DNA of 64,000 nt from assembly GCF_044704955.1 (NCBI RefSeq), contig NC_091980.1, positions 128,464,001 through 128,528,000 of the forward strand, in the 5' to 3' direction. Positions 16,401 through 61,234 of this stretch are shown here, in pieces. Numbering within the stretch: the stretch's first letter is position 1; each line of letters begins with the position of its first letter. The DNA is from Pristiophorus japonicus (lineage: Eukaryota). The notes beneath the pieces are model-generated. The model saw nothing but the letters and a program-made list of their open reading frames with translations. It was not told the DNA's origin and made no database searches. The translations under genes and the position numbers were made by a program.

Positions 16401-19400
16401 TGTACCATTTCCAGTTGTCGGACAACTGAGGGTGAAACACTTACAGGTTAAAAGTGAAAGGCAGTTGGGCCCCAACGCCTCAGCAACTGGCCAAGTTAAC
16501 AAAGCATTGAAATCATGCTATCGGTGCCTGGGAGAACACATTGATCAAAGTTGTCTGTATGTGAAGGCAGAGTGTTTCTTCTGCAAGAAAACTGTGCATC
16601 TTGCAAAGGCATGCTGACTGAAGAGTACATCAACTTTCAAGGCAATAAGTAAAAATCCCCAGAGACTACAGAGAATTGAAGAAAAGCAACAGGATGAAGA
16701 GAAACATGTCATCAGGGGCATGAGGATATCTAACAGCGATTCGGGAAGTATCCTCATCCAAGTAGACATTACAGGAACCAGGATACCCATGGAAATCGAC
16801 ACTGGTGAATCCGTGATGTAGTACCGGAATCGCTAAATCTTTACAAGTTGAGTGATTTTCTACAAAGATAGAGCTGAAAGGCTAATCAGGAGAGAAAATC
16901 CCTGCGGTAGGACGTATCAACATACCGGTGAAATATAAGGATCAATTTCAGAGCTTCCCTCTATTTGTAGAGGCAGGAGACAAACCTGCCTTACTAGGTA
17001 GAAATTCGTTGGGATCACTGAAGTTGGATTGGAATGAGATTTTCTTATTGAAACGAGATTTGCATTCAAGGAAGGTGTTTTGTGAAACAGGCAGTCCGGT
17101 CCATGATCTCAAGGCAAGTGTCAGGGTACAGAAGGACGCGAGACCAGTTTACTGCAAACTATGTCCCATCCCATACGCACTCAAGGAGAAAGTTGAGCAA
17201 GAACTCAAAAGACAAGAAATTGAGACCATTATCTCTAAGGTCGATCTATGTAATTGGGCTACACCATTGTTGTTCTACCGAAGTCAGATGGTAAGGTGAG
17301 GTTGTGCGGTGATTATAAAGTAACGGTAAACCAGGTTTTCGAAGGTAAGCTCCCAAATTCATTGCCAAATGTAGAAGATTTGTTCACAATGCTGACAGAT
17401 GATCAGATCTTCTCAAAGTTAGATCTCACAAATGCCTACATACAACGTGAACTCGATGAGGAGTCCAAGTCATGGTTGATTATAAATACTCATCCAAGCC
17501 TAGATCAATTTAATAGGCTACCATTTGGAGTGTCTTCTGCCCCCACCACATTCCAAGGAGTGATGAACCAGATTTTGCAAGGCATTGAAGAGGTAGTATG
17601 TTATTAAGATGACATACTCATTTCAGCAACAAACAGGCAAATCTATAACGTATTGAATGAAGTGCTCAAATGGCTAGAGAAGCACAGAGTACGAGTGACT
17701 GAGCACAAGTGTGAGTTATTTCAAAACTCAGTGGCGCACTTAGGGCACAGAGTTGACAAAGATGGTTTATATGAAACCAAGGGAAAGCTGGATGCAATTA
17801 GAAATGCACCCACACCCAAGAATGTCACTGAACTGCGATCATTTTTGGGTCTTTTTAACTATTATGGAAAGTTCGTACCAAATTTGGCTACAGTGTTACA
17901 TCCACTGAATGAGCTGTTCGCTCACTATGCCGTATCTAAGGAGATCAAATGAGCATATGATGCCTCTCAGTATGGAGTTTGGACAGTGATCTCTCATGTA
18001 CTACACAGTGGGGCGGAGAGACCAATTGCTTTTGCTTCATGCATTCTTTGTGCCAGTGAGCGTAAATATGCGCTAAATCGAAAGGGAAGTTTTGGCATGA
18101 ATTTCTGGTGTCAAGAAGCACCACAAATACTTGTATGTTCGTAAGTTTAGCATTGTTACAGACCATAAGCCTCTGATAGTGATCCTCCATCCAAAGTCCC
18201 CAATTCCAACCTTAGCTGCAGCCCGAATGCAGAGATGGGCTATGATTCTGTCAGCAGATATGTATGACATTGAATACAGACGATCAGCTGATCACAATAG
18301 TGCTGATTCGATGTCTAGATTGCCTTCCCCATCAGAAGTTACAGCCAATAGGGAAGAAGTGTTCTATATTTCATACATTGATGAAGTGAAATTCACAGCT
18401 GAAGAGACTGGTAGAGCAACCAAACGTGTCCCAGTTATGTCAAAGTTGTATGATTACATCGCAACTGGCTGGCCAAACCATGTATTCATCCATACTTCGT
18501 TTGCAGGAATATATTATCAGTGGATAAAGATTGTATCATGTGGGGCACAAGAGCGAATATACCAAATAAATTCAGGTCCAGATCATTAGGAGATCTTCAT
18601 GATCAGCACCTGGGAATGTGCTTGACCAAGAGTTTTGCACGCAGTTATTTATGGTGGCCAGATCTAGATAAAGATATAGAGTACATCATTAGTCAGTTTA
18701 CAACATGTCAATCGGTAAGCATGAAACCACCATCAGTACTATTACAGCGAAGGAAATGGCCTCCCAGGGTGTGGCAAAGGTTCCATATCGATTTTGCTGA
18801 GCTAGAAGGAGAGCAATTGTTCATTGTGATTGAAAGCCATTCGAAGCAGGTCGAGGTATTTCCAATGTGTAAAATAACAATAAAACAGTAGACAATTTGC
18901 AAATATAATTTTCTTCTTATGGCCTCCCAGAAGAAATTGTGTCTGATAATGCACCACAATTTTGTTTAGAAGAATTTGCAGAGTGCACGAGCAGAAATGG
19001 TGTGAAATATATCAATGTTCCACCATACCACCGTGCTTCAAATGGTGCAGCAGAGCGCACATTACAAATTGTAAAATGTGCCCTCATCAAACAAATGTTT
19101 TATTCAAATCCAAACAAACAGTAGCTGTCGTTGGACCACAAATTGGCTAATTTTCTAATTACTTATTGTAATACTCCTCATCCAACTACTGGTAGAACAC
19201 CAACAAAGTTGTTTCTCAAACGACAACAAAGAACCAGGTTCTCGTTGTTAAAGCCAAACTTGGTACAGTCAGTAGAAGAGAAACAATTAAGACAGAAAGA
19301 GCATCATGATAGAGGTAGAGTAGGAGAGAGAAGTGTGAAATTAAATCAGAAGGTGAGAGTGAAGAACCATCACCATAAATGGTTAAAGTGGTTACCAGAA

Positions 19401-20190
19401 AGAGTGGTGAAGATATGTGGTCCTCGCACATATTTGATAAAGATTTTTGATCATGGAAAGGTTAGGTTTTGTCACCTTGATCGTACTGTACCTACAGATA
19501 TGGAAGCAGTTGAAAGTTGGAATGATTTGATTAATTCCGACTCATCGGATTGTTTTGTTACAAGTAGAATACCAATAGCAAATCCTACATCAGATGTACT
19601 GGAAACAAGCCCAAGAGAAAATCAGAATCTGAGTCAGGCAGACAAACAGTCTGAAGTTGTCGAGTTCAAATGTAGATCAAGGGCATCCCTTGGAGGAAAA
19701 CTTTCCTCCGGCTCAGCCTGGAATGAATCTAAGTTCGACACCATGTTTGCTAAGTTCTGTTCGAGAAACAGGTATCCTCTTCAAAACCGAGAACAAGTGA
19801 AGTTCGATTTGTAAATATGGCAAAATAAGTCAATATCTTTTGTTATGTATAACTATGCAAGTTATGTACGATGATGATTTTGTTATGATTACTTCTTCAT
19901 TAAAGGAGGGAGAAATGTAATAAAGAGCTCCATCAAGTGGACTACTGTGGTAATGCAGCCATTGCTAGAAATACAATAAAAGCAACAGGTGGCAGGTCAC
20001 CTGACAAGTTGCTGTGTTGAAGCCATCTTCTAAGTATGTGTTTGTGATGTTGTAGAGAAGATACCACAGAGATTAGGCTGACTGGCCTGTAATTACTCGG
20101 TCAATCCATTTCTTTCCTTTTAAACAGATGTACATTAGCAGTCCTCCAGTACTTTGTCATCACACCTGTAGCCAGAGAGGAGTGGAAAAT
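13443..20190 (-). mobile_element. CR1 LINE 3' portion (13443-14483, 15217-15539, 20069-20190), split by an unknown insert and LTR element C
   Basis: ORF2 motifs FSKVFDKVP, VPQGSVLGPLLF, YKTLVRRQLEYCVQFWSPH. Confidence 0.85.
15540..20068 (+). mobile_element. Gypsy (Mag-like) LTR element C, decayed
   Basis: LTRs 15540-15711 and 19916-20068; TSD GAAGT/GAGAT; PBS TGGCGATGAAGGAT; PPT AAAGGAGGGAGAAA; zinc knuckle CYRCLGEH..CFFCKK, RT VRLCGDYK, integrase HIDFA/SDNAPQF; many stops. Confidence 0.9.
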
Positions 20191-23400: not shown

Positions 23401-23940
23401 CAACTCAATGAGGATCGAAATTGTCCTAACTTTCCTCAAACACAGTTCAGATATCCAGAATCACAGGTTTAAATGAATCCCCTACTCTTTAGGCAAATCA
23501 ATTGGGAAAATCTTAAACCATAAGTGCCCTCTTTATAAAGGGGAATGAACAATAAGTTCAAATGTGACAAAAGTAACATAAAAACTTTTCAAATTATAAT
23601 TTAGTTCCCTGTATCCACCCTGCACTCCAGTCCCTCTGGTGCGCACCTGTCACGGAAAGCCTCCAACATACCAGCAGACAATCCTCCATGGACAGCCGGG
23701 GCATGGATATAGCTGTGAAGAGAGGCAGGCAGACGGAGCGAACTCCCCATCGACCGTGCTCTGCCTGGACCAGGTAATTGCTACCTTGAAAGGTTAATTG
23801 AATCCTCTGTTGTTTATGAGTCAGTGTCTTTTTAATAGTTCTGGATGCTTCAGTGCGTGTATGAGGATCACCATCGTTCATTGGGTTGGTCATGTGCAGG
23901 TATCTATGGGTTTGTTGTAACATAAAAACATAGTGGTTGT

Positions 23941-25155
23941 GGGCCCAATTTTGACAATGATTTGCATCAATTTTTTTGGAGTAAGTTGTTTTTTCTGGCG
24001 TAAGTTAAAACATGCCATTTTCCCCCCAAAATTTGCTCCAGAGTAAGTCAGTTAGGTGCGATTTTTTTGAGTTCAGTTTTTTTTTCAAAAGGTGGCGTTC
24101 CCAGACACTTACACCATTTATTCCACTTTGGCCAGCAAAAACTTACTCCAAATCGACTTAGGTCAGCATATGTGGCCAGCTCTGAAAAACATTGCGGGCA
24201 GTTAAGAAATCGGTGCAGGTAAGTACATTTAAAGCACCAAGATTTACAAAGCACTAAACAAATCACAAAAAGTAATAAGCAATCAATCAACAACAAATTT
24301 TTATGCCTTTATGACAGAATCAAGTTTTTTTTTTAAAGTTCACCCCGCCGCCATCAAAACACTCTTTCTTCTCCCCCCGGCCATCGAAACACTCTTTCTC
24401 CACCCCCGCCCACACCCCCATCAAAACACTCTTTCTCCCTTTCTGCGCCCCGATCAAAACACTCTTTCTCTCCCCTCCCCGATCAAAACACTCTTTCTCC
24501 CTTTCTGCGCCCCTATCAAAACACTCTTTCTCTCCCTCCCCGATCAAAACACTCTTTCTCCCCCCACCTCCCACTTCAAAATCCTCTTTCTCTCCGCCGC
24601 CCCCATCAAAACACTCTTTCTCCCCCACAGCCCCGCATCAAAACACGCTTTCTCCCCCCGCCCCCAAACGTTCTTTTTCCCCCCCCGCCAAAAAAACTCT
24701 CCTTCTCTTCCCCCTCCCACCAATGAAAACTCTCAAGCACAACTATCAATAAATAAAAAATAAAACCAAGTCCTACCTCGCCCGCGAACAAAGCGGGCCG
24801 GCCGGCCGGTGTGGGAGGCCACTCGGCCGGGGATAGGGTCCGACGAGATCAGGCCGTCCCTTTGGCCGGGGATAGGGGCTGCGAACATCAAGTCCAGCTC
24901 ACAGCCCGCAGGACAGGCTGGGATGGCAGGAGCATGCGTGCAGACTTCACTGCGCATGCGCGCAGCTGCCGGCAATGCTTTCTGCGCTGGCCTGTTGGTC
25001 CGCCCCCCATTGTACAATGCACGCCACGCTGGGACTCCGGGGACTCGGAAGAGCGGCCAGGATGGGGCGAATTTTTTCCGGCGCCGTTTCCAGCGTGCAA
25101 AGTCGCCGCATTTAAGGTAAGTGCGCCAAAAAACGGGTTGGGCAAAATTGAGCCC
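23941..25155. mobile_element. Non-autonomous TIR DNA element (MITE, possibly PIF/Harbinger-like)
   Basis: Termini GGGCCCAATTTTG...CAAAATTGAGCCC; degenerate 3-bp TSD; splits the AGTGGTTATGTTACTGG head of the neighbouring LINE; related copy at 47756-48638. Confidence 0.75.
24345..24730. repeat. ~30-bp minisatellite (ATCAAAACACTCTTTCTC plus C-rich spacer), about 12 units
   Basis: Repeated core visible directly; gives spurious IKTLFL/DQNTLS ORFs. Confidence 0.85.
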
Positions 25156-28100
25156 CATGTTACTGGACTAATAATCCAGAGACCTCGACTAATGTTTAAT
25201 CCCACCACAGCAGCTGGGGAATTTAAATTCAGTTAATTAAATAAAAATCTGGAATAAAAAGCTGGTATCAGTAATGTTGACCAGGAAGCTATCGGATTTT
25301 CATAAAATCCCATCTGATTCACTAATGTCCTTTAGGGAAGGAAATCTGCCACCCTTCCCCGGTCTGGCCTGTATATGACTCCAAACCCACAGCAATGTGG
25401 TTGACTCTTAATTGCCCTCTGAAATGGCCTAGCAAGCCACTCAATTTTTAACAAACCGCTATGAGAAACAATAATAAGAATAAAACAGGACGAGCCACCT
25501 GGCATCGGCCACAGTACACCCAGCCCAGTCGATCCTGCAAAGTCCTCCTCACTACTGTCTGGCGAATTGTGTCAAAATTGGGAGAGCTGTCCTACAGACT
25601 AGTCAAGCAACAGCCTGACATAGTCATACTCACAGTATCATACATTTCAGCCAATGTCTCAGCTTCCTCCATCACCATCCCTGGGTATGTCCTGCCCCAC
25701 CATCAGGGCAGAAACATCAGAGGTTGTGGTAAAGTGGTATACAATCGGTAAGGAGTTTCCCTGGAAGTCCTCAACATTGACTCGAGATCGCATGAAGTCT
25801 CATGGGTTCAGATAAAGCATGAGCATAGCTGAGAGACATAGCTGCCAGATTGGGCCTGCGACAAGTGGTGAGAGAACCAATGGAAGGGAAAAAGCTATTT
25901 GAACTTGTCTTCCTCAATCTACCTGTCGCAGATGCACCTGTCCATTACAGCATTGGTAGTGGTGACCACCAGACTGTTCTTATGGAGATGAAGTCCGGTC
26001 TTCACACTGAGGACACTCCCCATCTTGCTGTGTGGCACTACCACTGTGCTAAATGGAATCAATTCTGAACAGATCTAGCATCTCAAAACTGGGCATCCAG
26101 GAGGTGCTGTGGGCAATCAGCAGCCGCAGAATTGAATTCCACCAAAATCTGTAACCTTATGGTCGGCATATTGTTCACTCATTACCATCAAGGCAAGGGA
26201 CCAAACCTGGTTCAAGGAGGAGTGCAGAAGAGAATGCCAGGAACAACACCAGTTGTACCTAAATAGAGGTGCCAATCTGGGGAAGTTGCAACACAGGAAT
26301 ATATGCATGCTGAACAACAGAAGCAGCATGCTATAGACAGAGCTAAATAATCCCACAATCAATGGCTCAAATCAAAACTCTGCAGTCCTGCCACATCCAG
26401 TCGTGAATATTGATGGACCATTAAACAACTAACGGGAGGAGGAGGCTCCATGGATATCACTGTCCTCAATGATGGAGGAGCCCAGCTCGTCACTGCAAAA
26501 GACAAGGCTGAAGCGTTTGCAATCATCATCAGCCAGAATTGCCTCATAGATGATCCATCTCAGCCTCCTGCTGTGGTCCCCACCATCATCGAGGTCAGTC
26601 TACAGCCAATTCAATTCACGTCACGTGATATCAAGAAATGGCTGAGTGCACTGGAGATAGAAAAGATTATGGGCTGCGACAACATTCCGGTTGTCGTGCT
26701 GAAGACTTGTGCTCCAGAACTAGCCGTGCCTCGAGCCAAGCTGTTCCAGTACAGCTACAACACTGGCATTTACCCGACTAAGTGGAAAACTGCCCAGGTA
26801 TGTCCTGTCCGCAAAAATCAGGACAAAGCAAATTCGGCCAAATACTTCCCCGATCAGTCTGCTCCCAATTATCAGCAAAGTGATGTAAGGTGTCATCAAT
26901 TGTGCTAACAAAGTGTTATTTACTCACCAATAACCCGATCACTGATGCTCATTTGGGTTCTGCCAGGACCACTCAGCTCCAGACCTCATTACAGCATTGG
27001 TCCAAACATGGACAAAAGAGCTAAATTCCAGGGAGAGGCCATACGGCCCATCGAATCTGTGTCCGCTCATTCAACTATTGAATCTGTTTCCACCACCCTA
27101 TCAGGCAGAGCATTCCATATCCTAAATCACTCGTTGAGTTAAAAAATGTTTCTTCATGTCGCCTCTGGTTCTTTTGCTAATCACCTTAATTCTGTGCCTT
27201 CTAATAATTGACCTTTCAGCCATTGGAAATAGTTTCTGTTGATTGACTGAGCTAAGCGATCCCACAATTAACGGATCAGATCAAAGCTTTGCATTCCTGC
27301 CACATCCAGTTATGAATGATGGTGGATAATTAAACAACTAACTGGAGGAAAAAGCTTCATTAATATCCCCATCCTCAATGATGGCGGAGCCCAGCACGAG
27401 TGCAAAAGACAAGCTTGAAGCACTTGCGACGACCTTCAGCCGGAAGTGCCTCATGGATGATCCATTTCAGCCTCCTGCTGAGGTCCCCACCATCACAGAA
27501 GCCAATCTTCAGACCATTCAATTCACTTCATGCGATATCAAGAAACGGCTGAGCTCACTAGATGCAGCAAGAACGAACCGTGCCTCTAGCCAAGCTGTTC
27601 CAAGTACAGCTGCAACACTGACATCTACCCGACAATGAGTAAAACTGTCCAGGTATGTCTTGCCCAAAATAGCCAGGACAAATCTAATCCAGCCAATTAC
27701 TGCCCCATCAGTCTACTCTCACCCATCAGCAAAGTGATGGAAGGTGTAGTCGACAGTGTTATCAAGCAGTACTTACTCACTAATATTCTGTACACTGATG
27801 CTCAGTTTAGGTTCGCCCAGGACCACTCATCTGCAGTACTCATTACAGCCTTGGTTCAAACACGGACAAAAGAGCAGAATTATATGTGAGGTGAGAGTGA
27901 CTGTCCTTGACATCAAGACAGCATTTGACCGTGTGTGGCATCAAGGATCCTTGGTAAAATTGAAGTCAATGGGAATCAGGGCGAAAACTCTCCACTGGCT
28001 GGAGTCATACCTAACACCAAGGAAGATGGTTGTCAATTATCTCAGCCACAGGACATCACTGCAGGAGTTTCTCAGGGCAGTGTCCGAGGCCCAACCATCT

Positions 28101-33361: not shown

Positions 33362-35514
<2,153 letters not shown>

Positions 35515-35780: not shown

Positions 35781-36425
35781 GACAACTTAATGAGGATCTG
35801 AATTGTGTAAACTTTCCTCAAACACAGTTCAGATATCCAGAATCACAGGTTTAAATGAATCCTCTATTCTTTCGGCATTGGGAAAAACTTAAACCATAAG
35901 TGTCCCCTTTATAAGGGGGAATAAACAATAAGTTCCAAACATGACAAAACTAACATAAGCACTTTTCAATTTATCATTTAGTTCTCTGTATCCACGCTGC
36001 ACTCCAGTCCCTCTGGCGCCCACCGGTCACGGAAAGCCTTAAGCATACCGGCAGACACCGCGTGCTCCCTCTCCAGGGATACCCGGGCACGGATATAGCC
36101 GCGGAAGAGAGTCAGGCACACGGAGAGAACACCCCATTGACCGTGCTCTGCCTGGACCAGTTAATGGCCACCTTGAAAGGTTAATTGAATTCTCTGTTGT
36201 TTGCGAGTCAGTGTCTTTTTAATAGTTCTGGATGGTTCTGTGCGTTGGTCATTTGAAGGTATCTACGGGTTTGATGCAACATCCAAACAGATCAGTGAGT
36301 GTGCAAATCAACCAAAAGTGGGTCAGATGAATGCAAATTGCTGGTGATCAATGTGTCAAACATAAATACTCAGATACTCCATCACTTCCAAGTTTAGTGA
36401 GCACCTGTACACACATCAGCTAGAA

Positions 36426-38294
36426 TGTGGAGGGGACCTTTAGTGTCCCCCTCCCCTTTTATAGGGGGCACTTGTAAATTATATGATTTTATTGCCCAAA
36501 AAAAATCACAAAAGGAAAAAAAAAAATACCAAAAAAAACCCCCCAAAAAACAACAAAAAAAAAGAGGGCAGGTATAAGTGTCTGGAGTGTCCCCCAGATC
36601 GGGGGGCACTCGATGCAATGTTATTTTGTACTCCCCAAAAAGAGTTGTGGAGGGGACCTGAGCACGCGGTGTCCACCCGTATGCTCACGGCCTTCCGCGA
36701 GAGGTGGGCACCGGAGGTACTGGAGTGCATTGTCACCCCCGGCAACCAAATTTTAATGTTTTAAAGTTTAATTTGTTTTAATTGCCGGATTTTAAGTGTC
36801 CCTCTCCCCTTTTATAGGGGGCACTTGGAAAACAACTATGATTTTAGTGCCCCAAAAAAACCCACAAAAATAACCAAAGGAAACCAAAAAAAAACAAAAA
36901 AAATGACACGTGAAAAGTGTTTGGAGTGTCCCCCAGATCGGGGGGCACTTGATTTAATTGATTATGTTTTCCTCAAAAAGAGTGGTGGAGGGGACCTTTA
37001 GTGTCCCCCTCCCCTTTTATAGGGGGCACTTGTAAATTATATGATTTTAATGCCCCAAAAAAAATCACAAAAGGAAAAAAACACAAAAAAAATATAACAA
37101 AAAAAAAACAAAAAAAAACAACAAAAAATAAAGAGGGCAGGTATAAGTGTCTGGAGTGCCCCCCAGATCGGGGGGCACTCGATCTAATGTTATTTTGTAC
37201 TCCCCAAAAAGAGTTGTGGAGTGGACCTGAGCACGTGGTGTCCACCCGTACGCTCAGGGCCTTCCGCGAGAGGTGGGCACCGGAGGGACTGGAGTGCATT
37301 GTCACCACCGGCAACCAAATTTTAATTTGATTTTATGTTTTAAAGTTTAATTTGTTTTAATTGCCGGGTTTTTAGTGTCTCCCTCCCCTTTTATAGGGGG
37401 CACTTGTAAATTATGGCTTTAGAGCCCAAAAAAGAACACAAAACAAACCTACAAAAATACAAAAAAAAAGGCCTTGGGAAATGTTTGGACTGTCCCCCAG
37501 ATCGGGGGGCACGATTTAATGTTTATGATTTAATGTTTATTGTTAACTCCAAAAGAGTTGTGGACGGGACCTGAGCACGCGGTGTCCACCCGTACGCTCA
37601 CGGTCTTCCGCGAGAGGTGGGCACCGGAGGGACTGGAGTGCATTGTCGCCCCCGGCAACCAAATTTTAATTTGATTTTATGTTTTAAAGTTTAATTTGTT
37701 TTAATTGCCGTGTTTTAATGTCCCCCTCCCCTTTTATAGGGGGCACTTGTAAATTATATGATTTTAATGCCCCCAAAAAATCACAAAAAAACCCCACAAA
37801 AACCCCCCAAAAAAACCCAAAAAAAACATTTATTAAAAAAAAGGGCAGTTAAGTGTCTGGAGTGTCCCCCAGATCGGGGAGCACTTGATCTCACGTTTAT
37901 TTTGTTCCCACCCAAAAGAGTTGTGGAGGGGACCTGAGCACGCGGTGTCCACCGGTACGCTCGCGGCCTTCCGCGAGAGGTGGGCACCGGAGGAACTGGA
38001 GTGCATCATCACCCCCGGCAACCAAATTTTAATTTGATTTTATGTTTTAAAGTTGAATTTGTTTTAATTTCCGTGTTTTAATGTCCCCCTCCCCTTTTAT
38101 AGGGGGCACTTGTAAATTATATGATTTTAATGCCCCCAAAAAAATCACAAAAAAAAACACAAAAAAAACCCAAAAAACAAAAAAATAAAAAATGAGGGCA
38201 GTTAAAAGTGTCTGGATGGAGTGTCCCCCAGATCGGGGGGCACTCGATCTAATGTTTATTTTGTCTCCCCCAAAAAAGAGTTGTGGAGGGGACC
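36426..38294 (+). mobile_element. Tandem array of six 5'-truncated Tx1-like 3' ends separated by seven copies of a 13-bp target
   Basis: TGTGGAGGGGACC (0-1 mismatch) at 36426, 36646, 36984, 37215, 37559, 37922, 38282; long units encode EHAVST.TL.AFRERWAPEGLECI.TPGNQILI*; single empty site at 49708-49720. Confidence 0.85.
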
Positions 38295-40014
38295 ATGGGA
38301 TGTTCAGTTCATGAAATTTTGGACACAATGAAATAGACTGCAGGCCAAAAAGAAAGATGTGTGTTTATATCACGTCTTTCACAACCTCAGGATGTCCCTG
38401 AGTGCTTTACAGCAAATGAAGTACTTTTTGAAGCACAGTCACTGTTGTAATGTAGGAAGTGTGGCAGCCAATTTGTACACAGCAAGGCTCCACAAACAGC
38501 AAGGTGAACATGATCACATTATCTGTTTTCAGTGACATTGTTTGAGGAATAAATATTGACCAGGTCACCTGGGATAATTCCCCTGCTGCTCTTCAAAGTA
38601 GTGCCACGGGATCATTTATGTCCAGCTCGGAGGACAGACGGGGCAACGGTTTTACATCTCATCCGAAAGACAACTCTGACAGTGCAGCACTCTCTCATTA
38701 CTGCACTGTAGTGTCAGCCGAGATTCTGTGCTCACGTCTCTGGAGTGAGGACTTGAACCCACAACCTTCTGACTCAGAGATGAGAATGCTACCCACTGAG
38801 TCTCTGACTGATCCTGGAAACTAAAAGCTCTCTGTTACCCATTACGCTAATATCTATCTCAATAATCTGTGAAATCTCCACGCTATCTGCCTCCGGTGTT
38901 CCCAGACTCATCTCCCATGTTAGAACACGTGTTAGAGCTGAGTGCAGAGAGAGGCTGGGAATTACAAAACAGAATTAAAACAAACAGCAGGAGCTTGAGC
39001 CAAGTGCTGCACAGCAAGGGGAAGACAGACTGAAGAGATGGAGAAAGTAGCCAGGTAACTATAGGAGGAACTACTGGAGATTAGAACTTCATCTGAGTTT
39101 GGAACATGCCCAAGTTTGGATATCGCTGGCAAGGCCGACATTTATTGCCTATCCCTAGTTGCCCTGAGAAGGCGCTGGTGAGACTCCTTCTTGAACTATA
39201 TTCAGGTGCTCAATTTGCCCGGTCACTTCAGAGGGCAGGTAAGAATCAACCACATTACTGTGCAAATGGAGTCACATATAAGCCAGACTGGGTAAGGACG
39301 ACAGGTTTCCTTCCCGAAAAGGAAATTAGTGAGCCAGTTGTATCTTGACAGCAATCCTAAAAGTCCATGGTTACTGATATTAGTTTGTTTTAAATTTTAA
39401 ACTGAATCCGAATGATGGTGGGATTTGAACTCACATTCTGTATATTATTGGTCTAGACCTCTGGATTACTAGTCCAGTGACATAACCACTGTACTATTGT
39501 ACCCCTAACATACAGCTTGAAAAAAAGCTGACTCTCCACTTTTCAATCTCCATGAACATTGGCCTAGTTCACAGAGGCTGGTAATTATGTCCAGTGTATT
39601 TATTAGCAGTTTACGTTAAGATACCCAACTATGTTCCCAATTTTTCCTTTCCACACGATAGATAAATTTAGTGAGGCCTCATCGGACGTTCCTTGTGCTT
39701 TGGATCGGAACCTGCTTCAGCGAACACGTTCCTAGTGTTCCCAAAATTGAAAGACTCTCAGCAGTAATTCTTGGGGGTTGTCTATTCAGAAGGTGCAGAC
39801 TCTGTACTGTAACAGCACGCCCTTGGCAAAGTGGTTCAAACATGAGGGGCAAGGTCTTACCGTAACCAGATTACATTTAAATCTCTTTCTCCAGTACACC
39901 CAACTTTAAAACCAGTTAAACACTAAGATTAGACTTGCAGCTATGACCATCTTAGGCCACCACTGAACCAAAGTCAGTATTCTGGAGGGGAAGAGATTAA
40001 AATAGCCACATGCC

Positions 40015-43000
40015 TGTAAAGTCCTGTCCCCTCAGTACGGATTCACACGAGGCATATAGTGAAGTCAAGGTCACTCTGGACCTGCACCTTTATTTCACAG
40101 CTCCGGAATGCTGCACTTGCCTGAGACCTGTCCTTATATACCTGCCTCTTGCAAGTGCACCCCTGGTGGTAAGGTATGCTGGTGGTTACAGGTCATATCT
40201 TATTACAGTCATGTATAACATGTTAGGATACAGTTATATATAATAATGTAAGATACATGACATCACCCTCCCCCAAGGTCTTATTGTCTTTATAGGTTCA
40301 GTCTCTCAGGTGGTCTACGCTCTTGCTTGGAGCGTCTGAGTTGTGGTTCAGTTGTTTGCCTTGGTGTCTGTTTTTCTTTGGGTGTGGTTGCTGGTATCTC
40401 GCTTGGGCTGTCTGTTTCGATTGGTGTGATTGTTGTTGACTCGCCTGGGCTGTCTGTTGGGATTGCCCTTTCCTCAGGTTGTCCCCTCTGTCTGTCCACC
40501 AGGTGTGGTGTGAGTTCCACATTGTAGTCTGCCTCTGGTTCCGCAGTGTTGTTGGTAAATCTGCTTTTGACTTGGTCTACATGCCTCTGGCAGGTTTTGC
40601 CATTGGCCATTTGTACTACCAGTAGCCTGTTTCCTTCCTTGCCCGTTACTGTCCCTGCAAGCCATTTGGGACCCCTGCTATAGTTTAGTACAAACACTTT
40701 GTCCCCAATCTCATTCCATCTCCCCCTCGAATTTCTGTCATGGTACTCAGTCAGCTTACGGCGCTTTGCCTCAAAGATTTCGTGCATGCCTGGGAGGATT
40801 AATGAGAGCCATGTTTTTAAAGTCCTTTTCATCAACAGTTGCGCGGGGGGGATCACAGTCAGTGAGTGCGGACGAGATCTGCATGCCAGTAGCAGTCATG
40901 ACAGGCGACCCTGCAGCGTGGGACCTTGGATTTTAAGCATGCCTTGTTTAATGATTTGCACTGCTCTCTTCGCCTGGCCGTTGGAGACCGGCTAGAACGG
41001 TGCCGTCTTGACATGATTTATGCCGTGGTCAATTATAAAGTCTTGGAATTCTGCGCTGGTGAAGCACGGACCATTGCCACTGACCAATATGTCAGGGATT
41101 CCGTGCGTTGCAAACATGGTTGCGAGGCTCTCCACAGTGGTGGAGGTTGTGCTCGAGTTTAAAATGGTGCACTCGATCCACTTTGAAAATGCATCTATAA
41201 CTACGAGGAACATTTTGCTCATGAATGGGCCCGCATAGTCTACGTGCACCCTCGACCACGGTTTGGTAGGCCAGGGGCTCAATGGAGCCTCCCTGGGGGC
41301 ATTGCTGAGTTGGGCACAAATGGTGCACCTTCGGATGCAGAGCTCCAAGTTTGTGTCAATACCAGGTCACCAGACGTGGGATCTGGCCATGGTCTTCATG
41401 AGAACGATCTACGGGTGCTCGCGGTGGAGCTCCCGGACAAATGCCTCTCTGCCTCGCAGGGGCATGACTACTCGGCTGCCCCACATCAGGCAGTCTGCTT
41501 TTAGTGATAGCTCATGCATGCGTCTGTGAAAGGGTTTTAATTCCTCGGGGCAGGCATCGCGAGCCTCTGCCCAGTCATCGGTTAGGACACATCTTTTTAC
41601 GAAGGATAACGTGGGGTCACTGGCCGTCCAGGCTCTGATTTGGCGAGCCTGTGGACTCAAAGGCATTGATTGCCATGACTATCACACAGTTCTGTTCATC
41701 AGACCCTTCCGTGGTCACCAGGGGTAGCCTGCTGAGCGCGTCGGCACAGTTGTCTGTGCCTGGTCTGTACCTTATGGTATAGTCGTAGGACGCCAGAATG
41801 AGTGCCCACCGTTGAATTCGCGCCGTGGCGTTGGCGTTTATTGCCTTGCTCTCAGATAGGAGGGATGTGAGGGGCTTGTGGTTGGTTTTTAATGCGAACT
41901 CAGCCCCGAGAAAGTATTGGTGCATCTTTTTGACACCGTACACGCACGCGAGCGCTTCCTTCTCTACCATTCCGTACCCGCGCTCTGCCCACGAAAGTGA
42001 CCTGGAGGCATAAGCTATGGGTTGTAATTTGCCCGCACTATTGACATGTTGCAAAACGCACCCGACCCAATACGCTGAAACATCGCATGTGAGAACTAGC
42101 TTTTTACCTGGGTCATAGAAAGTCAGAACACTGTTGGAACACAGAAGGTTGCGTGCCTTATTGAAGGCGCGTTCCTGGGCGTCCCCCCAAAACCAATCGC
42201 ACCCCTTCCTGAGTAGCACATGGAGAGGCTCCAGCAGCGTGCTTAAGTTCTGCATAAAGTTTGCAAAGTAATTGATTAGCCCGAAAAAGGCATGCAGTTC
42301 TGAGACATTCCGGGGCCTGGGTGCTAGGCAAATTGCTTCTGTTTTGGACTCTGTTGGGCGGATTCCATCAGCGGCAATCCTTCTGCCCAAAAATTCAACC
42401 TCGGGTGCAAGAAACAGGCATTTGGATTTCTTGACTCGTAGGCCTACCCGATCCAACTGCTTTAGTACTTCCTCTAAATTACGGAGATGGGAGTCGGTAT
42501 CCCTGATCGTGATAAGTATGTCGTCTTGAAATACAACCGTCCCCGGGATGGACTTGAGCAAACTCTCCATATTGCGCTGGAATATAGAGCTGCCGACCTG
42601 ATGCCGAATGGGCATCGATTGTACATGAAAAGGCCTCGATGTGTGTTGATGGTGGTGAGTAGCTTGGATTCCTCGGTCAATTCTTGCGTCATATACACAG
42701 ATGTGAGGTCTAATTTTGAGAAAAGTTTACCTCCAGCCAATGTGGCAAATAAGTCCTCCGCTCTCGGCAGCGGGTACTGGTCCTGTAGGGAGACTCTGTT
42801 TATGGTAGATTTGTAGTCCCCACAGATTCGTATGGATCCATCAGGCTTCATGACTGGGACGATGGGACTTGCCCAGTCGCTAAATTCCACAGGTGATATA
42901 ATGTCTTCCCGCAGAAGCCTGTCTAGTTCGTGTTCAATCTTTTCCCTCATCACATAGGGTACAGCTCTGGCCTTGTGATGGACCGGTCTAGCATCTTGTG

Positions 43001-44711
43001 TGATATAGATTTTGACTTTGGCCCCTTTGAAAGTGCCCACACCTGGTGAAAGAGATGTTCAAATCGCTTTATAACTGTTGAGCAGGAGGTCCGTTCCTCT
43101 AGTGACATGGCATGGACATCATCCCATTTCCAGTTTAGTTTTGCCAGCCAGCTTCTCCCCAGCAGTGCTGGGGGGTCTCTGGGGACAATCCACAGGAGAA
43201 GTCGGTTTACTGTCCCTTTGTGTGTGACAGAGAGCATGGCGCTGCTGAGGGCTGGTACGATTTCTTTGGTATAGGTCCTTAATTTGGTGTCGACCCTTGT
43301 GAGTTTTGGTCTGTCTCTTTTATGCGGTCACAGTTGTTCAAATTGTTGAGCTCCCATGAGAGATTGACTCGCTCCCGTATCCAGCTCCATGTTAACAGAT
43401 ATCCCGTTGAGTAGGACCCTCATCATTATAGGAGGCGTCCTGTTGTAGGAGCAGCAGCCATTGATCCTGTTGACCCGCTGTACATCGGTGTCCCGGGTAC
43501 TGTCCCCACCATCTTCTGGTCCGCTTTCCGACCCATCTGATTCGTATACCAGCCGAGCTGCCGTTTTCTTGCACATGCGGGCCAAATGCCCTGTATATTT
43601 ACAATTTCTGCAAACAGCCTGCCGAAATCGACATCCCCTTGATGAGTGCCCACCCCCACACCGCCAGCACAGACCTGTTCTGCGTCTGGCTGATCTCTCT
43701 TGAGCTTCTCTCAGTTTGTAGTTGATTGCTCGCATTGTGGGTTGATGAGGTGTGAACGGCCGTTCCTGTGGCCCTTGATGGCTTCTGCCTGCTGTCGAGA
43801 GCCTGTTCTCCCGGTTTTGTCTGTGTGTGTGGGTAGCAGCTTGTTTAGTGCTGTGAACTTCTTGTTCCGATATTTTGTTAGTTGTCGTACCTGCATTGTA
43901 AATCAACCTCGTTTCTTCTTCCTCTACCAAGAATGTCTGTGCAACCAGTGCTGCTGCCTCTAAGGTCAGGTTCTTGGTCTCTATGAGCTTTAAGAATATG
44001 TCTGCGTGGCCTATTCCTTCAATGAAAAAATCTCTCAGCATTTCTCTCCTCAGTTCATCGGAGAACTCACATAAACTAGCCAACCTCCGAAGTTCTGCCA
44101 CGAAGTCGGGTATGCTCTGGCCCACACAGCGTCTGTAGTTGTAGAACCTGTGTCTGGCCATGTGTAGGCTGCTCGCTGGCTTCAGGTGGTCTCTTACCAG
44201 TGTGCTCAATTCTTCAAACGACTTGCTTGCTGGTTTCTCGGGTGCCAACAGATCCTTCATTAAAGCAGATGTTTTCGAGCCACAGCTGGTCAAGAGATGG
44301 GCTCTTCTCTTGTCTGCCTTATCGTTGCCTAACCAGTCTTTGCTTACAAAGCTTTGCTGGAGCCTTTCTATAAAGTCCTCCCAATTGTCTCCCGCATTGT
44401 ACTTTTAATCTGATCCATTGTTCGCCATTCTGTGGATTCTGTAATCCCGTAACTCGTTGCCACTGTAAAGTCCTGTCCACTCAGTACAGATTCACACGAG
44501 GCATATAGTGAAGTCAAGGTCACTCTGGACCTGCACCTTTATTTCACAGCTCTGGAATGCTGCACTTGCCTCAGACCTGTCCTTATATACCTGTCTCTTG
44601 CCAGTGCACCCCTGGTGGTAAGGTATGCTGGTGGTTACAGGTCATATCTTATTATAGTCATGTATAGCATGTTAGGATACAGTTATATATAATAATGTAC
44701 GATACATGACA
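40015..44711 (-). mobile_element. Gypsy (Mag-like) LTR element D, youngest in window but disrupted
   Basis: LTRs 40015-40262 and 44464-44711 (9 differences in ~248 bp by eye); PBS TGGCAACGAG; PPT GGGGGAGGGTGA; gag-protease (ELDTGAS), RT (FQDD), RNase H, integrase split by frameshifts; no TSD. Confidence 0.92.
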
Positions 44712-46137
44712 TCAAGCAGCGAAAACAATATACTAAATTGCAAGGAGTACAATTAATTTGCTGTTTAAACTGGAAGGAGTGTTTGGTGCTCTGAACAGTG
44801 GGAAGAGGAGCATCCTATTCAATAAGTATCTCCTGCATTTAAACAGGAATGTACCGTGGGAAAGGAAGGGGGTCTTTTGGGTGATTGAGGACCAGAGTGT
44901 CACGGCCAGACAGGTCACTTCACAATGCTGAAAGGGGAGGGAAAGGGAAGATGTGTTAGCGAGTAGGGTTGCCCGAGGTGGCAGAAAAGGCAGAGGATGA
45001 TTCGTTGAATGTGGACGCTCCTGGTAAGGAAGGTGAGGACAAGGGGAACTGCATCGTGGATCTGCGAGTGAGGGAAAGGGGTTGGAGTATAACGATGGGA
45101 AATGGAGTCCAGCGGCACTGGCAGGCATTCATGTGAGCATTGATCAGGAGGCCAAGTTATTCGGTCATGATCGGAGCGGGCAGAAGAGAAGCTGTCCCAG
45201 AACCACCACACGAGGGTATCCACACTAACCAATGAAGCTGTGACAGCAAGCTGATACCAATTATTGCTTTCCCTCCTCATCCAATTGTCCCCGGGGTTCA
45301 ATGCACTCGGACACTGGTGGTCTGTACAGCAGCTGCTAGTCTGCATACAAAGCTTAACAGGAAGTCTACAGCAGCAATGGTGAGTTCAGTTACTAAACAA
45401 CCTGCAATAATAACTGAACAGGATCTACAGCAGTGACTGAATACAAACTGCTAATTCCAGGGCCAATATACTTATTTAATAAGATGCTAATCCTGGACTT
45501 TTTCCTTTACTGATCTGAAATGGTAAGACTGATTGAGCAGGAAATATTGCTGGTGTTTAACTTATGTTACAGCAACCTTTATTTTGTGGTATGGAGTTAT
45601 CAGTTATGTAATGGTAGAGAGAATGTTCACTCGTGGGAACAGGTATTTTTAATCTGCTGACTAAATACCACGCTCTGCCATTCCCTCTCTGAACCTATTT
45701 AAGACACTCCCTAAAACCTACCTCTGACCATGATTTGTCTCTCCTCAGTCAATATCTTATGTGGCTGTTAACAGTCTGAACACACCCTCAACCATTTCAC
45801 ACCCTGCAACAAGTGTCTGAATATACAACTCAAACCCCAGAGGAAAAACAAATTTCATACAACTGAAACCCATAACACTGTTGCACAACTCAGTGTAATT
45901 CTTGTCTGATGTCAGTCATGTTATTTTTAATTTAACAACCACTCAAACATACAAGGAGACAAAACCCAGTCCAATGTTGAACAGTTTATTTACAGTAATG
46001 TTACATTTCACACGAAGAGCCTCAGTCTCAGATCTTTGTCCAACATCACAAGCCATCATTCCTTACAGAACAGGGGTCCCAGTTATTATACATCCAAGTA
46101 CTAAACACAATAATCTTGATCCAGTCAGTCAGACAGT

Positions 46138-49062: not shown

Positions 49063-50658
49063 ACAACTCAATGAGGATCTCAACTGTCCTAACTTTCCTC
49101 AAACACAGTTCAAATATTCAGAATCACAGGTTGAAAGGAATCCTCTACTCTTTAGGCTAATCAATTGGGAAAAAATTAAAACATGTGTCCCCTTTATAAG
49201 GATGAATAAACAATAAGTTCCAAATATGACAAAACTAACAAGCACTTTTCAAATTATAATTTAGTTCCCTGTATCCACGCTGCACTCCAGTCCCTCTGGT
49301 GCCCACCGTTCATGGAAAGCCTCCAACATACCGGCAGACACCGAGTGGTCCCTCTCCAGGGACACACGGGCACGGACATAGCCGCAGAAGAGAGACAGGC
49401 AGACGGAGAGAACACCCCATCGACCGTGCTCTGCCTGGACCAGTTAATGGCCACCTTGAAAGGTTCATTGAATCCTCTGTTGTTTGCGAGTTAGTGTCTT
49501 TTTAATAGTTCTGGATGGTTGTGTGGATTGGTCATTTGAAGGTATCTGCGATTTTCTGCAACATCCAAACAGATCAGTGAGTGTGCAAAGGAACCAACAG
49601 TGGGTCAGATGAATTCAAAGTGCTCGTCATCAATGTGTCAAACACAAGTGCTCAGATATTCCATCACTTCCATGTTTCGTGAGCACCAGTACACACATCA
49701 GCTAGAATGTGGAAGGGACCATAGGATGTTCAGTTTGTGTTTTTTATCATTAAATTTTAGAAGCAATGAAATAGACTGCAGGCCAAAACGGAAGACTTGC
49801 ATTTATATAGCACCTTTCACAATCTCAGGCTGACCCTGACCGCTTCACAGCCAATGAAGTACATTTTGAAGCACAGTGACTGTTGTAATGTAGGAAATAT
49901 GGCAGCCAATTTGCACGCAGCAAGGCCCCACAAACAGCAAGGTGAACATGACCACATTATCTGTTTTCAGTGACATTGGTTGAGGAATAAATATTGGGCA
50001 GGTCACCGGGGATAACTCCCCTGCTCTTCTTCAAAGTATTGCTATGGGATCTGTTATGTCCAGCTCAGAGGGCAGTCAGGGCCACGGTTGAAACTCCCTC
50101 ATGACTGCACTGTAGTGTCAGCCGAGATTCTGTGTTCACATCTCTGGAGTGGGGACTTGAACCCACAACCTTCTGACTCAGAGACGAGAGTGCTACCCAC
50201 TGAGTCCACCTGACTGATGCCCGAAACAAAAAGCTCTCAGTTACCCACTCTGCCAATAACTAACTCAATCATCTGTGAAATCTCCAATTTATCTGCCTCC
50301 GGTGATCCCAGTCTCATCTCTCGTGTTAGACTACGTGTTAGAGCTGAGCGCAGAGAGTGGTTGGGAAATATGAAACAAGATTGATACAAACAGCAGGAGC
50401 TTGAGCCAAATGCTGCACAGCAAGGGGAAGACAGGCTGAAGAGATGGAGAAAGCAGCCAGGTAACTGTAGGAGGAACTACTGGAGATTTGGTCTCATTGC
50501 TTTGAACTTCGTAACATGCCCAAGTTTGGATGTCGCTGGCAAGGCCGACATTCATTGCCTTTCCCTAGTTGCCCTGAGAAGGTGCTGGTGAGACTCCTTC
50601 TTTGAACCATGTTCAGGTACTCAATGGTTGAGAGACACCTTGCTCGGTCACTTCAGAG

Positions 50659-54210: not shown

Positions 54211-54403
54211 GGAAATAAATACCTGATTTTTGTTGTAATACTTTTATTGAATGGATACAACAAAGTTTGTTGTGCAGCTGACGACACTCTAGAAATATTA
54301 TAGAATAGTGCAAGAGATTGACCTGTTGTGAAACCATATTCGAGAATACTAACACTCATTAAACCATGGGGCATTAGGAGGTTAGACACACCTCGTATAA
54401 ATT

Positions 54404-56070
54404 CTGTTCCTGGGGGTGATGGTGCACTCCAGTCCCTCCGGCGTCCACCTCTCACGCAAGGCCGCGAGCGTACCGGTGGACACCCTGGCTTGAACGTAAC
54501 CATGGAATAGAGGCAGGCAGTAGGGATGAACACCACCCTCGACCACCCGCTGACTGGACCGGTTAATGGCCACCTTGGCAATGCCCAGCAGCAGTCCTAT
54601 AAGGAAGCTTTCCGACCTACCTACTCGCCTTCGCACAGAATGCCCAAAGATCAGTCGTGTGGGACTGAAGGCCAGAAATTTAACTGGACCAGCCACATAA
54701 ATACTGTGGCAACAAGACCAGTCAGAGGCTGGGTATTTGATGTTGAGTGTCTTACCTCCTGATAACCCAAAGCCTTTCCACCATCTACAAGGCACAAGTC
54801 AGGAGTGCGATGGAATACTCTCCACTTGCAGCTCCAACAATTCCCCAGAAGATCAATACCATCCCTGACAAAGCAGGGCACTTGATTGGCACCCCATCCA
54901 TCACCGTCAATAACTCTTTTTGGGGAGTACAAATAAACATTAGATCAAGTGCCCCCCGATCTGGGGGACACTCCAGACACTTATAACAGCCCTCTTTTTT
55001 TGTTTTTTTGGGGTTTTTTTTTGTATTTTTGTCGGGTTTTTTTTGTGTTTTTTTTTAGGGCATTAAAATTCAATATTTTACAAGTGCCCCTATAAAAGTG
55101 GAGGGGGACACTAAAACCCCGGCAATGAAAACAAATTAAACTTTAAAACATAAAATCAAATTAAAATTTGGTTGCCGGGGGTGATGATGCACTCCAGTCC
55201 CTCATCGCCCATCTCTCGCGGAAGGACGCGAGCGTACCAGTGGAGGCGCGTGCTCCATCTCTCTTGACACCCTGGCCCGAATGTAGGCATGGAAGAGAGG
55301 CAGGCAGTCAGGCTGAACGACCCCCTCGACCGCCCGCTGCCTGGACCAGTTAATGGTCACCTTGGCAATGCCCAGCAGACTCCTACAAGGAAGCCTTCCG
55401 ACCTACCCACTCGCCTTCGCACAGAATGCCCAAAGATCAGTAGCGTGGAACTGAAGGCCAGAAATTTAACTGGACCAGCCACATAAATACTGTGGCAACA
55501 AGACCGGTCAGAGGCTGGGTATTTTGTGTTGAGTGTCTCACCTCCTGATAACCCAAAGCCTTTCCACCATCTACAAGGCACAAGTCAGGAGTGCGATGGA
55601 ATACTCTCCACTTGCCTAGATGAGTGCAGCTCCAACAATTCCCCAGAAGCTCAACACCATCCCTGACAAAGCAGCCCACTTAATTGGCACCTCATCCATC
55701 ACCGACAACATTCACTGCCTCTACCACCGGCGTACCATGGTTGCAGTGTGTACCATTGACAGGATGCACTGCAGCAATTCAATAAGGCTTCTTCAGCAGC
55801 ATCTGCCAACCCGCGAGCTCTACCAACTAGAAGGACATGGGCACCATGTGCATGGGAACACTATCACCTGCAATTTCCCCTGCAAGTTGTAAATATATCG
55901 CCGTTGGGTCAAAATCATGATACTCCCTCCGTAACAGCACTGTGGATGTACCTTCACCACAGGACTGCAAGAAGGCAGCTTACCACCACGTTTCCATGGG
56001 CAATTAGGGAGGGGCAATAAATGCTAGCCTTTCCACTGATGCCCACAACCCACAACAAATTTTTGAAAAA
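54404..56070. mobile_element. Tx1(-)/LINE(+) composite with duplicated junction: Tx1 54404-54670, LINE 54671-54910, Tx1 54912-55456, LINE 55457-56070
   Basis: FSPT.LIFGHSVRR..AKVAINRS Tx1 frame twice; junction ACTGAAG|GCCAGAAATTTAACTGGACC twice. Confidence 0.75.
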
Positions 56071-59550: not shown

Positions 59551-60135
59551 GACAACTCAATAAGGATCACAATTGTCCTGAACACAGTTCAAATATCCAG
59601 AATCACAAGTTTAATTGAATCCTCTACTCTTTAGGCAAATCAATTCACAGAATCATAGAATGGTTGCAGCAGGAAAGAAAGCCATTCGGCCCATTGAGCC
59701 TGTGCCAACTCGCAGATAGGCCCACTGCCCTAATTGGGATGATTAAATCAGCTATCGGAAACATTTAAATCATAATTGCCCCCTTTATAAGGGGGAATAA
59801 ATAATAAGTCCAACTGGTGAAAATACTAACATAAAACATTTTAGTTCCCTGTATCTACGCTGCACTCCAGTCCCTCTGGTGCCCATCGGTCACAGAAAGC
59901 CTCAAGCCTCGGCAGACACTCTCCAGGGACACCTGGGTACGAACATAGCCGTGGTAGAGAGGCAGGCAGACGGAGAGATCACCCCATCGACCGCGCTCTG
60001 ATCGGACCAGATAATGGCCACCTTGACATCCTCTGTTGTTTGCGAGTCAGTGTTTTTTCAATGGTTCTGTGGGTTGGTCATTTGCAGGTATTTGCAGGTT
60101 TGATGCAACATTCAAACAGATCAGTGAGTCTGCAA

Positions 60136-61234
60136 CTACTTTTGTGAAACAATAAATCAATTGTCCCCTTTAAAGGGGCACTAGGACTGAAAAATTAACC
60201 AATAAAACTTTCTGAACAATAAAAGGTCAAATTAAAATTGGTTGCTGGGGTGATGATGCATTCAGTCCCTCCGCTGCCCGCCTCTCGCCGAAGGCCATGA
60301 ACGTACTGGTGGACACCGCTTGCTCCATTTCCAGGGACACCCCTCACTCGAATGTAACCGCGGAAGAGAGGCAGGCAGTTGGGCTGAACGACCCTCTCAA
60401 CCGCCCGCTGCCTGGACCGGTTAATGGCCACCTTGGCCATGCCCAGCACCAGTCCTATGAGGAGTCCTTCCGACCTGCCCACTCCCTACCACACAGGATG
60501 CCCAAAGATCAGGAGCGTTGCACAGACGTGCAACCGAATTTGAGGAGCAGCCCCTTCAAATATTGAGGGAGGGACTGCAACTCATACATTTGACATAAAT
60601 ATAGAACAGGGAGTCCTCCAGACCACAGAAATTACAGGCAGCCTGGGAATCCGTGAACCGATTTAAAAATCGATTGCACGGGACTGCCCCATGCAACACC
60701 CTCCAGGTTAAGTCCCCAATAAATAAAGAGAGGACTCCGGCGTAGAGAGCACTCCATTGGAGATCCCCGCCTCCACCGGTGGCAAGATGGTGCGCCAAGG
60801 CATGTCCAGACGGCAGATGAGGATGTCAAAGTGGAGAGTGTACCAGAGCAGCCTGTACTGGAATCCCCTCCGTGCAGTACTGAAAGACGCAGAGGGGATT
60901 TCCTGAAGGAGGCTCAAGTTGTGAGGCGCCGGCTCCCGAGGGAGGTTTCGGGGCTTGCCGCTGATGAGGAATTCCGTCCGGACGGGGGTCAGTTCGGTTG
61001 GGATCGCCCCACATGCTTAGGCATCCTCGACACACCTAACGGAGTCAGGGTGCAGTGCTGCTTTTAGCGACTCGATGGCATTGGCCGCGCGCCAGACGTC
61101 GGCCCAGGATAGGCACCATGCCAGCTCCTCTGGCGCCATCCAGCCCGCTCCTCCGCCATCCAGTAGGTCCCTGGCTCTGGTCACCTTGCCAAACCCATCC
61201 CTCTTGTCCGCCTGCCACCTAAAACCGTGCTTCG
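60136..61234 (-). mobile_element. 5'-truncated Tx1-like LINE with 12-bp TSD
   Basis: zf-RVT-type WRVLHGAVPCN..CNFCGLEDSLF, AKVAINRSRQ; TSD GTGAGTCTGCAA at 60124-60135 and 61235-61246. Confidence 0.85.

Follow-up and report, generated by a model that had tools for sequence, protein, structure and literature searches.

Six LINE 3' ends stacked between copies of one 13-bp target-site duplication in Pristiophorus japonicus, possibly extended by switching of new cDNA onto resident copies

Tandem retroelement copies separated by target-site duplications (TSDs) have been described in several systems. In Drosophila, R1 is reported to form TSD-separated tandem arrays by repeated insertion, growing at the 5' TSD (PMC2718515), and many other Drosophila elements are described as double-insertion tandems that were later expanded via unequal exchange (bioRxiv 10.1101/158386). 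Tandem SINEU-3 copies are reported to be mobilised by Tx1-Mar, which is listed with Tx1L, Keno, Kibi and Koshi among the target-specific families of the Tx1 clade (PMC4494074). Work on human L1 describes a different process, in which an elongating L1 cDNA undergoes recombination, at the insertion site, with an L1 already resident there (PMC5223499, citing Gilbert 2005) or, in templated insertions, copies nearby DNA (bioRxiv 10.1101/2024.08.27.596794). The joining of the LINE cDNA 5' end to the genome is still described as poorly understood (PMC10760644). Both ingredients of the array reported here are thus known, namely TSD-separated tandems of the R1/Tx1 kind and recombination between L1 cDNA and a resident copy, and their repeated combination in a germline is apparently a new variant. 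Our literature search, which covered titles, abstract openings and few subscription journals and is weak evidence of absence, returned no germline array with a common junction and different UTRs.

The window, by which we mean the whole 64-kb stretch of DNA analysed, contains the array at 36426-38294, in the order T-A1-T-B1-T-A2-T-B2-T-B3-T-B4-T, where T is the 13-bp TSD and A and B are two kinds of LINE fragment. The seven T copies and six units, all on the plus strand, are as follows.

36426 to 36438, plus strand: T1, leftmost TSD copy and the sole copy with native upstream flank (CTAGAA)
36439 to 36645, plus strand: A1, 207 nt, confined to the LINE 3' UTR, with its truncation at the 5' foot of hairpin H1
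36646 to 36658, plus strand: T2
36659 to 36983, plus strand: B1, 325 nt, local-type ORF2 end with a 10-nt deletion, and a putatively foreign 3' UTR
36984 to 36996, plus strand: T3, one mismatch
36997 to 37214, plus strand: A2, 218 nt, duplicate of A1 (4/132 differences, A-rich tract left out)
37215 to 37227, plus strand: T4, one mismatch
37228 to 37558, plus strand: B2, 331 nt, local-type ORF2 end and a second putatively foreign 3' UTR with a 14-bp internal duplication
37559 to 37571, plus strand: T5, one mismatch
37572 to 37921, plus strand: B3, 350 nt, 5' part like that of B1 and B2, B4-like from about position 140
37922 to 37934, plus strand: T6
37935 to 38281, plus strand: B4, 347 nt, same junction, 5' part and UTR both resembling the dispersed copy near 55 kb
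38282 to 38294, plus strand: T7, followed by native downstream flank

Four of the seven T copies are exact and three carry one mismatch. All four B units begin directly after T with TGAGCACG, all six units end in AAAAGAGT, and one TSD separates adjacent units at each of the five internal junctions; every boundary in the array consists of an element 3' end plus T, and the six units have two truncation points among them. With up to two mismatches allowed, T occurs 12 times in the window against 2.04 expected by chance, these matches being the seven in the array, three paralogous empty sites (1402, 49708 and 61366) and two unrelated ones (53661 and 53852). In the self-alignment both array flanks align at each of the three paralogous sites and meet there across a single T; this identifies T as a target-site duplication and means that the array arose in situ. 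Re-reading of the interval thus bore out what the first-pass annotation had described: the stacked layout and its coordinates, the single T of the paralogous units, and the 5' junction common to all B units. The array is a real feature. A tandem region rich in homopolymers could in principle be an assembly artefact, which is scarcely credible here given the many substitutions between units, the private changes in three of the seven T copies and flanks collinear with three paralogs.

The paralogs belong to a tandem segmental cluster whose repeated segments carry minus-strand ferritin genes (Pfam Ferritin, E=3e-10 for exon 2). At least five ferritin copies lie about 10-22 kb apart, with flanks 76-86% identical and ATGs at about 560, 23158, 35511, 48821 and 59322 on the minus strand. 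The copy at 35511, beside the array, is probably a pseudogene, as its exon 1 is 2 nt short and its exon 2 contains stops; the array, 0.9 kb upstream of this broken-looking copy, implies no host function. An older insertion of the same LINE group, with a TSD of about 17 bp and an AAAGAGT end, recurs on the minus strand at 951-1177, 23484-23790, 35896-36177, 49147-49461 and 59626-60029, and predates duplication of the ferritin units because it was copied along with them. A copy from a related subfamily lies at 60136-61234 on the minus strand; it is 1.1 kb long, has a single hairpin in its UTR and a TSD of 12 bp, and in a further ferritin unit the site equivalent to T is about 130 bp away from it. 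The LINE family is represented by three separate insertions in the roughly 600 bp that precede the ferritin start region on its upstream side. Elsewhere in the window, degraded LTR-retrotransposon-like copies were recognised by eye from gag knuckle, protease, RT and integrase-like frames (about 3900-5100, 6270-10770, 16900-19800 and 40014-44714), and the segments 40014-40265 and 44463-44714, 96% identical, resemble paired LTRs. A CR1/L2-like element at 26333-27881 contains a direct duplication (26333-27027 and 27242-27881, 74% identical), and 24340-24734 is a degenerate tandem repeat of 62/31 bp.

The B units consist of the final 33 ORF codons plus the 3' UTR, whereas the A units are UTR alone, from the first hairpin onward; in B4 the C-terminal 33 codons of ORF2 are intact. 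A C-terminal CCHC zinc knuckle (zf-RVT) is common to Tx1 and L1. A representative protein library contains 46 relatives of the peptide at E<=0.001, with the CCHC knuckle visible upstream as CxxC..H..C. The longest copy in the window (61234-60136, 1.1 kb, without RT) matches zf-RVT at E=0.004 with 18.2 bits, under the cut-off of 27.5. Among the Atlas neighbours of one homolog, zf-RVT occurs in 16-75% of members with a score of 0.95-0.96 and a recognition value below threshold, and its zf-RVT neighbour clusters are mostly chordate where known, a signal that is weak by the tool's measure. Searches of longer proteins with the peptides of two dispersed copies, F54 and F60, gave 455 and 10 candidates, none at E<=0.001, and a PDB sequence search gave no match. 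A Pfam scan of 13 longer homologs found a weak RVT_1 in one, gene models of dynein/kinesin carrying the LINE peptide in two, and no domain in ten. This peptide evidence fits the ORF2 end of an L1/Tx1-group LINE, of which the units would be 5'-truncated 3' ends; Tx1 is the label that we assume for the family. A profile search found 14 family fragments in the window. The element ends in AAAGAGT with no poly(A), an end that occurs 10 times in the window, the older subfamily included, and the signature of target-primed reverse transcription is present in 5'-truncated copies, a fixed 3' end and TSDs of 13, 12 and about 17 bp. The UTR carries two GC hairpins flanking an A-rich tract, and that of B4 folds better than shuffled sequences (z=-3.6). 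By eye, the two hairpin-plus-spacer halves of the array units are alike and the older subfamilies have a single hairpin; the sequences suggest that the two-hairpin UTR of the array subfamily arose by internal duplication.

The 5' parts of the B units had been read in the first-pass annotation as inherited from a neighbouring copy, and the common junction, a Gly-to-Arg change and the absence of synonymous differences all support that claim. The first base after T is T in all four B units and G in the three dispersed lineages compared that cover it, F55 (the copy near 55 kb), F60 and O36. Four states are common to B1, B2 and B3 and absent from B4 and F55. At position 20, B1-B3 have C (Arg), whereas B4, F55, F54, F60 and the O copies have G or A; none of the dispersed window copies covering that position has C, and in eight homologs this site encodes Gly in six and Arg in none. 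The differences among B1-B3 fall at 7 sites in 32 codons, all non-synonymous and none at third positions, as expected of decay after insertion and not of divergence between active lineages. If their sources were 15-24% apart, the probability of changing 0 of 24 synonymous sites would be 0.001-0.02. The lack of synonymous differences across 32 codons, together with a change unseen in dispersed copies, marks the 5' part of B1-B3 as a local copy. Microhomology was considered as an origin of the B junction, since T resembles the element upstream of GAGCACG; the junction carries an extra CCT, and for that reason a junction formed in this way would not recur four times. Identical 5' ends would also be produced by four independent insertions if B were a short, non-autonomous element whose 5' end is fixed and whose UTR exists in several subfamilies, and sequential SINE insertions sandwiching a TSD are reported for the Tx1-mobilised SINEU-3 (PMC4494074). 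We consider this very improbable, as the tRNA scan found no tRNA gene in the 64-kb window, the Rfam scan of 33-40 kb found no credible SINE head (two bacterial sRNA matches lay far under the cut-off), dispersed copies reach further 5', and the changes common to B1-B3 resemble post-insertion damage. A bacterial promoter and terminator scan gave chance-level results.

In B1 and B2 the UTRs have diverged about three times as far as the 5' parts. In the multiple alignment B1 and B2 differ at 6/133 sites of the 5' part and, with the A tract left out, at 31/129 of the UTR; because this alignment inflates substitutions, events were recounted on optimal pairwise alignments. On these, the 5' part and UTR differ by 7/133 and 23/136 events for B1-B2 (p=0.003), by 7/133 and 23/137 for B1-B3, and by 7/142 and 23/137 for B2-B3 (p=0.002-0.003 across the three pairs); homopolymer compression weakens the contrast (p=0.22 for B1-B2, 0.043 for B1-B3 and 0.011 for B2-B3). 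Max-chi2 permutation tests over all ten pairs among B1-B4 and F55 gave p=0.0003 for B1-B2, 0.001 for B1-B3, 0.0003 for B2-B3, 0.0007 for B2-B4, 0.008 for B2-F55, 0.015 for B3-B4 and 0.035 for B1-B4, with 0.08, 0.22 and 0.40 for the other three. Terminal branches for the 5' part and UTR are 0.016 and 0.2 in B1 and 0.022 and 0.2 in B2, compared with 0.065 and 0.06 in the dispersed F55. Private changes are distributed between 5' part and UTR as 6:26 in B1 and B2 together and 15:12 in B3, B4 and F55 (p=0.006, for a grouping chosen after seeing the data). We infer a foreign-subfamily origin of the B1 and B2 UTRs from this divergence alone; no donor of either UTR type is present among the 14 family fragments in the window.

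Other B units do not share this pattern. B3 and B4 show no contrast between 5' part and UTR (9/142 and 11/139, p=0.65), and the B3 UTR (GGGCAGTTAAGTG) is of the same type as those of B4, A and the dispersed 55-kb copy. The proposal that the B UTRs derive from different sources therefore stands for B1 and B2 and fails for B3/B4, and the B3 sequence that had been quoted as a third example does not represent a separate source. By sequence, B1 and B2 are the only demonstrable mosaics among the four B units, and the B3/B4 pair may reflect plain DNA duplication. B3 nonetheless groups with B1 and B2 through position 74 and with B4 from position 140, by a rank test (p=0.013) that includes column 282 at the A-tract edge, which breaks the perfect separation of B3 sites; for the 5' part, the AU test rejects grouping B3 with B4 as a clade (p-AU 0.03). 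Supposing that B3 was the template for B2, the switch would lie between positions 75 and 139, just upstream of H1, and the A units are truncated at H1, the same place as this putative switch region. A simple unequal crossover between B2 and B4 was set aside, since it would be expected to give a middle unit with the B4 5' part and the B2 3' part, the reverse of B3.

Two further origins of the divergent UTRs bear on these data. Mosaics would result if ectopic DNA-DNA gene conversion, with dispersed copies as donors, had come after a duplication of DNA, and such copies are abundant, with 14 fragments in 64 kb. Sequence divergence of about 17% disfavours gene conversion at the DNA level, and donor and recipient would be about this far apart in the UTR; moreover, the foreign states of the B1 and B2 UTRs extend to 10 and 7 nt from the 3' end, so that tracts reaching 7-10 nt from the element end would leave hardly any homology for the second end. 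We hold gene conversion to be improbable, and still a little more so the alternative that all B units form one local clade in which B1 and B2 were hit by clustered mutation in low-complexity spacers near the A-rich tract. For the latter speak the lack of donors in the window, the effect of homopolymer compression and the near-equal transitions and transversions (9:11 and 12:13). The tree topology also permits it: neither B1-B4 nor B1-B3 is rejected as one clade by the UTR tree (support 63/62; p-AU 0.26), and the signal lies in branch lengths. The first-pass annotation had set such a single local clade against its own reading; the topology leaves room for it, whereas the branch lengths carry the contrary signal. 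The same spacers, however, are little changed in the A1/A2 control (3/73 in the spacers, 4/132 over the UTR), in B3/B4 and in the independent F55. The hairpins are spared (4/59 against 19/77 in the spacers, p=0.006), as would be expected had the B1 and B2 UTRs diverged while part of active elements, and B1 and B2 share five aligned states that are absent from the other five copies, two of them in a poorly aligned stretch.

A second locus of the family, 16 kb from the array, has the minus-strand order D, F55, D', F54 at 55710-54399.

55461 to 55710, minus strand: D, duplicated host segment, beginning at GAA/TGTTG
54913 to 55460, minus strand: F55, LINE copy with intact 3' end and the same 5' junction as F54
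54675 to 54912, minus strand: D', second copy of D, directly after the F55 3' end
54399 to 54674, minus strand: F54, presumed resident LINE copy, 3' UTR missing

D and D' are copies of a host segment of about 240-250 bp, with 12 substitutions in 238 aligned positions and one 12-nt gap, and D', the 238-bp duplication, directly adjoins the last base of the F55 3' end. Across the locus, the first 376 aligned sites contain 23 mismatches and the last 136 contain 25 (permutation p=0.0014); for the element alone, where the F54 UTR is lost, the mosaic test is not significant (p=0.12). A plain long TSD would not yield the same junction twice, and for a random duplication a boundary at the element terminus would be rare. 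Break-induced replication, which has been proposed to explain 1-10 kb duplications at L1 sites (bioRxiv 10.1101/2024.12.14.628481), is an alternative for D/D', although alone it would not give a mosaic element. This arrangement gives our strongest evidence that a new insertion and a duplication can arise in a single event, and shows that a regenerated 13-bp target is not required.

The window does not bear out the claim that T is a specific target, as four independent insertion sites in the window, spanning at least three subfamilies, have four different TSDs (TGTGGAGGGGACC; TTGCAGACTCAC; AGAGGATTCAATGAACC; TGTTGTCGG). Strict target specificity is not supported, and a preference at the subfamily level is possible. 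The F55 cut site GAA/TGTTG and the context of the left T agree at 7 of 8 positions, a post hoc comparison in which 0.07% of window positions match as well; the array and F55 elements are of the same subfamily and their sites share GAA/TGT-G. A GAA/TGT preference, found at two of the four sites, would be at most weak. Growth at the left end is favoured because the leftmost T alone keeps the GAA upstream context.

Our preferred reading, to which we assign a probability of about 0.6, is that target-primed insertion took place repeatedly at one site and that new cDNA switched to a resident copy, duplicating its 5' junction. An initial LINE insertion generated the 13-bp TSD, as the sequence shows, and the site would then have been reused, with A as a separate insertion having its own truncation point and the same TSD; derivation of A from a B unit through deletion is possible. 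At least twice, RNA of a different source lineage would have been reverse-transcribed from a nick at T. After about 200 nt the cDNA would leave the RNA, pair with the homologous stretch of a resident B copy, be extended on it through its 5' junction and T, and re-anneal, so that the array gains a unit combining the old junction with a new UTR; the mosaic structure of this product is observed, and the route to it is our proposal. Five events, all at the left T, could account for the array: B4 is inserted; B4 is duplicated to give B3; B2 is added as a new UTR on the B3 5' part; A is inserted; and B1 is added by invading B2, copying T-A-T en route and so giving A1 and A2. A mirror, rightward-growing order would likewise take five events. 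Pairwise distances (A1-A2 3.5%, B1-B2 and B2-B3 5' parts about 5%, B3-B4 about 7%) are compatible with the leftward order and too close to prove it. The same reaction, from a nick 238 bp from the resident copy, would give D-F55-D'-F54.

Gain of units and change of UTRs may also have been uncoupled. An A+B double insertion would have formed a dimer, unequal exchange or slippage would have expanded it, and later cDNAs, primed at the downstream T or the resident AAAAGAGT end and annealing to the upstream resident, would have replaced the 3' parts of B1 and B2 without copy gain. This accounts equally well for the common junctions, the A1/A2 pair, the plain B3/B4 pair and the 3'-anchored tracts, and expansion of dimers is described in Drosophila (bioRxiv 10.1101/158386); the array data fit coupled duplication with UTR change and duplication followed by replacement alike, and cannot tell them apart. 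We nevertheless regard it as unlikely, since duplication of A would require exchange within only 13 bp of T, more independent events are needed, and the start of D' at the F55 3' end is left unexplained. Switching onto a resident copy, as preferred here, develops the first-pass proposal of repeated reverse transcription at T with resolution on the adjacent copy. Local 5' copying, the 3'-anchored foreign UTRs of B1 and B2 and the second-locus duplication speak for that proposal, while different sources for all B units and a specific T are not supported. A broader reading, tentative and in our view somewhat doubtful, is that such switching onto a neighbouring copy is the routine finish of insertion in this LINE family, of which the 64 kb would contain up to three cases. 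Truncated older copies would then serve as landing pads, a site would grow and record source lineages in order, host DNA would be duplicated as a by-product, and priming and switching would be set by the non-poly(A) AAAAGAGT end and pausing at H1.

Should homology-directed resolution commonly use a resident copy in the family, its stacks would be natural records of 5' joining. On that condition they would also give the order of subfamily activity at single loci, reveal an RNA-driven source of tandem duplications otherwise scored as unequal crossover, and call for caution before tandem LINE copies are dated or classed as simple duplicates. In common with R1, double-insertion and SINEU-3 tandems, the array has copies placed head-to-tail with one TSD between each; growth of R1 at the 5' TSD fits the left-growing order, and A and B, like double insertions, have different truncation points. 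Copies in those tandems are either independent, with different 5' ends, or identical after unequal exchange, whereas four units here share a junction and two of them have unrelated UTRs, and the target is ordinary flank, not a multicopy gene or transposon. The LINE resembles target-specific Tx1 families in its putative L1/Tx1-type ORF2 C-terminus with a candidate CCHC zinc knuckle and in its 12-17 bp TSDs, but differs from them in having no fixed target. As in L1 chimeras, new cDNA and nearby homologous DNA would have combined into a chimeric element with deletion or duplication, and as in L1 templated insertions the templates lie near the site, under about 250 bp (D is 238 bp). A feature of L1-type chimeras seen here is the coincidence of the D' boundary with the F55 3' end; the mosaic divergence in B1, B2 and the F55 duplication, for which the window contains no donors, may be a second. 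The L1 chimeras and templated insertions are described as single events in human cell lines and tumours, whereas the present array is fixed in a genome, has apparently arisen by repetition at one site and belongs to an element without a poly(A) tail.
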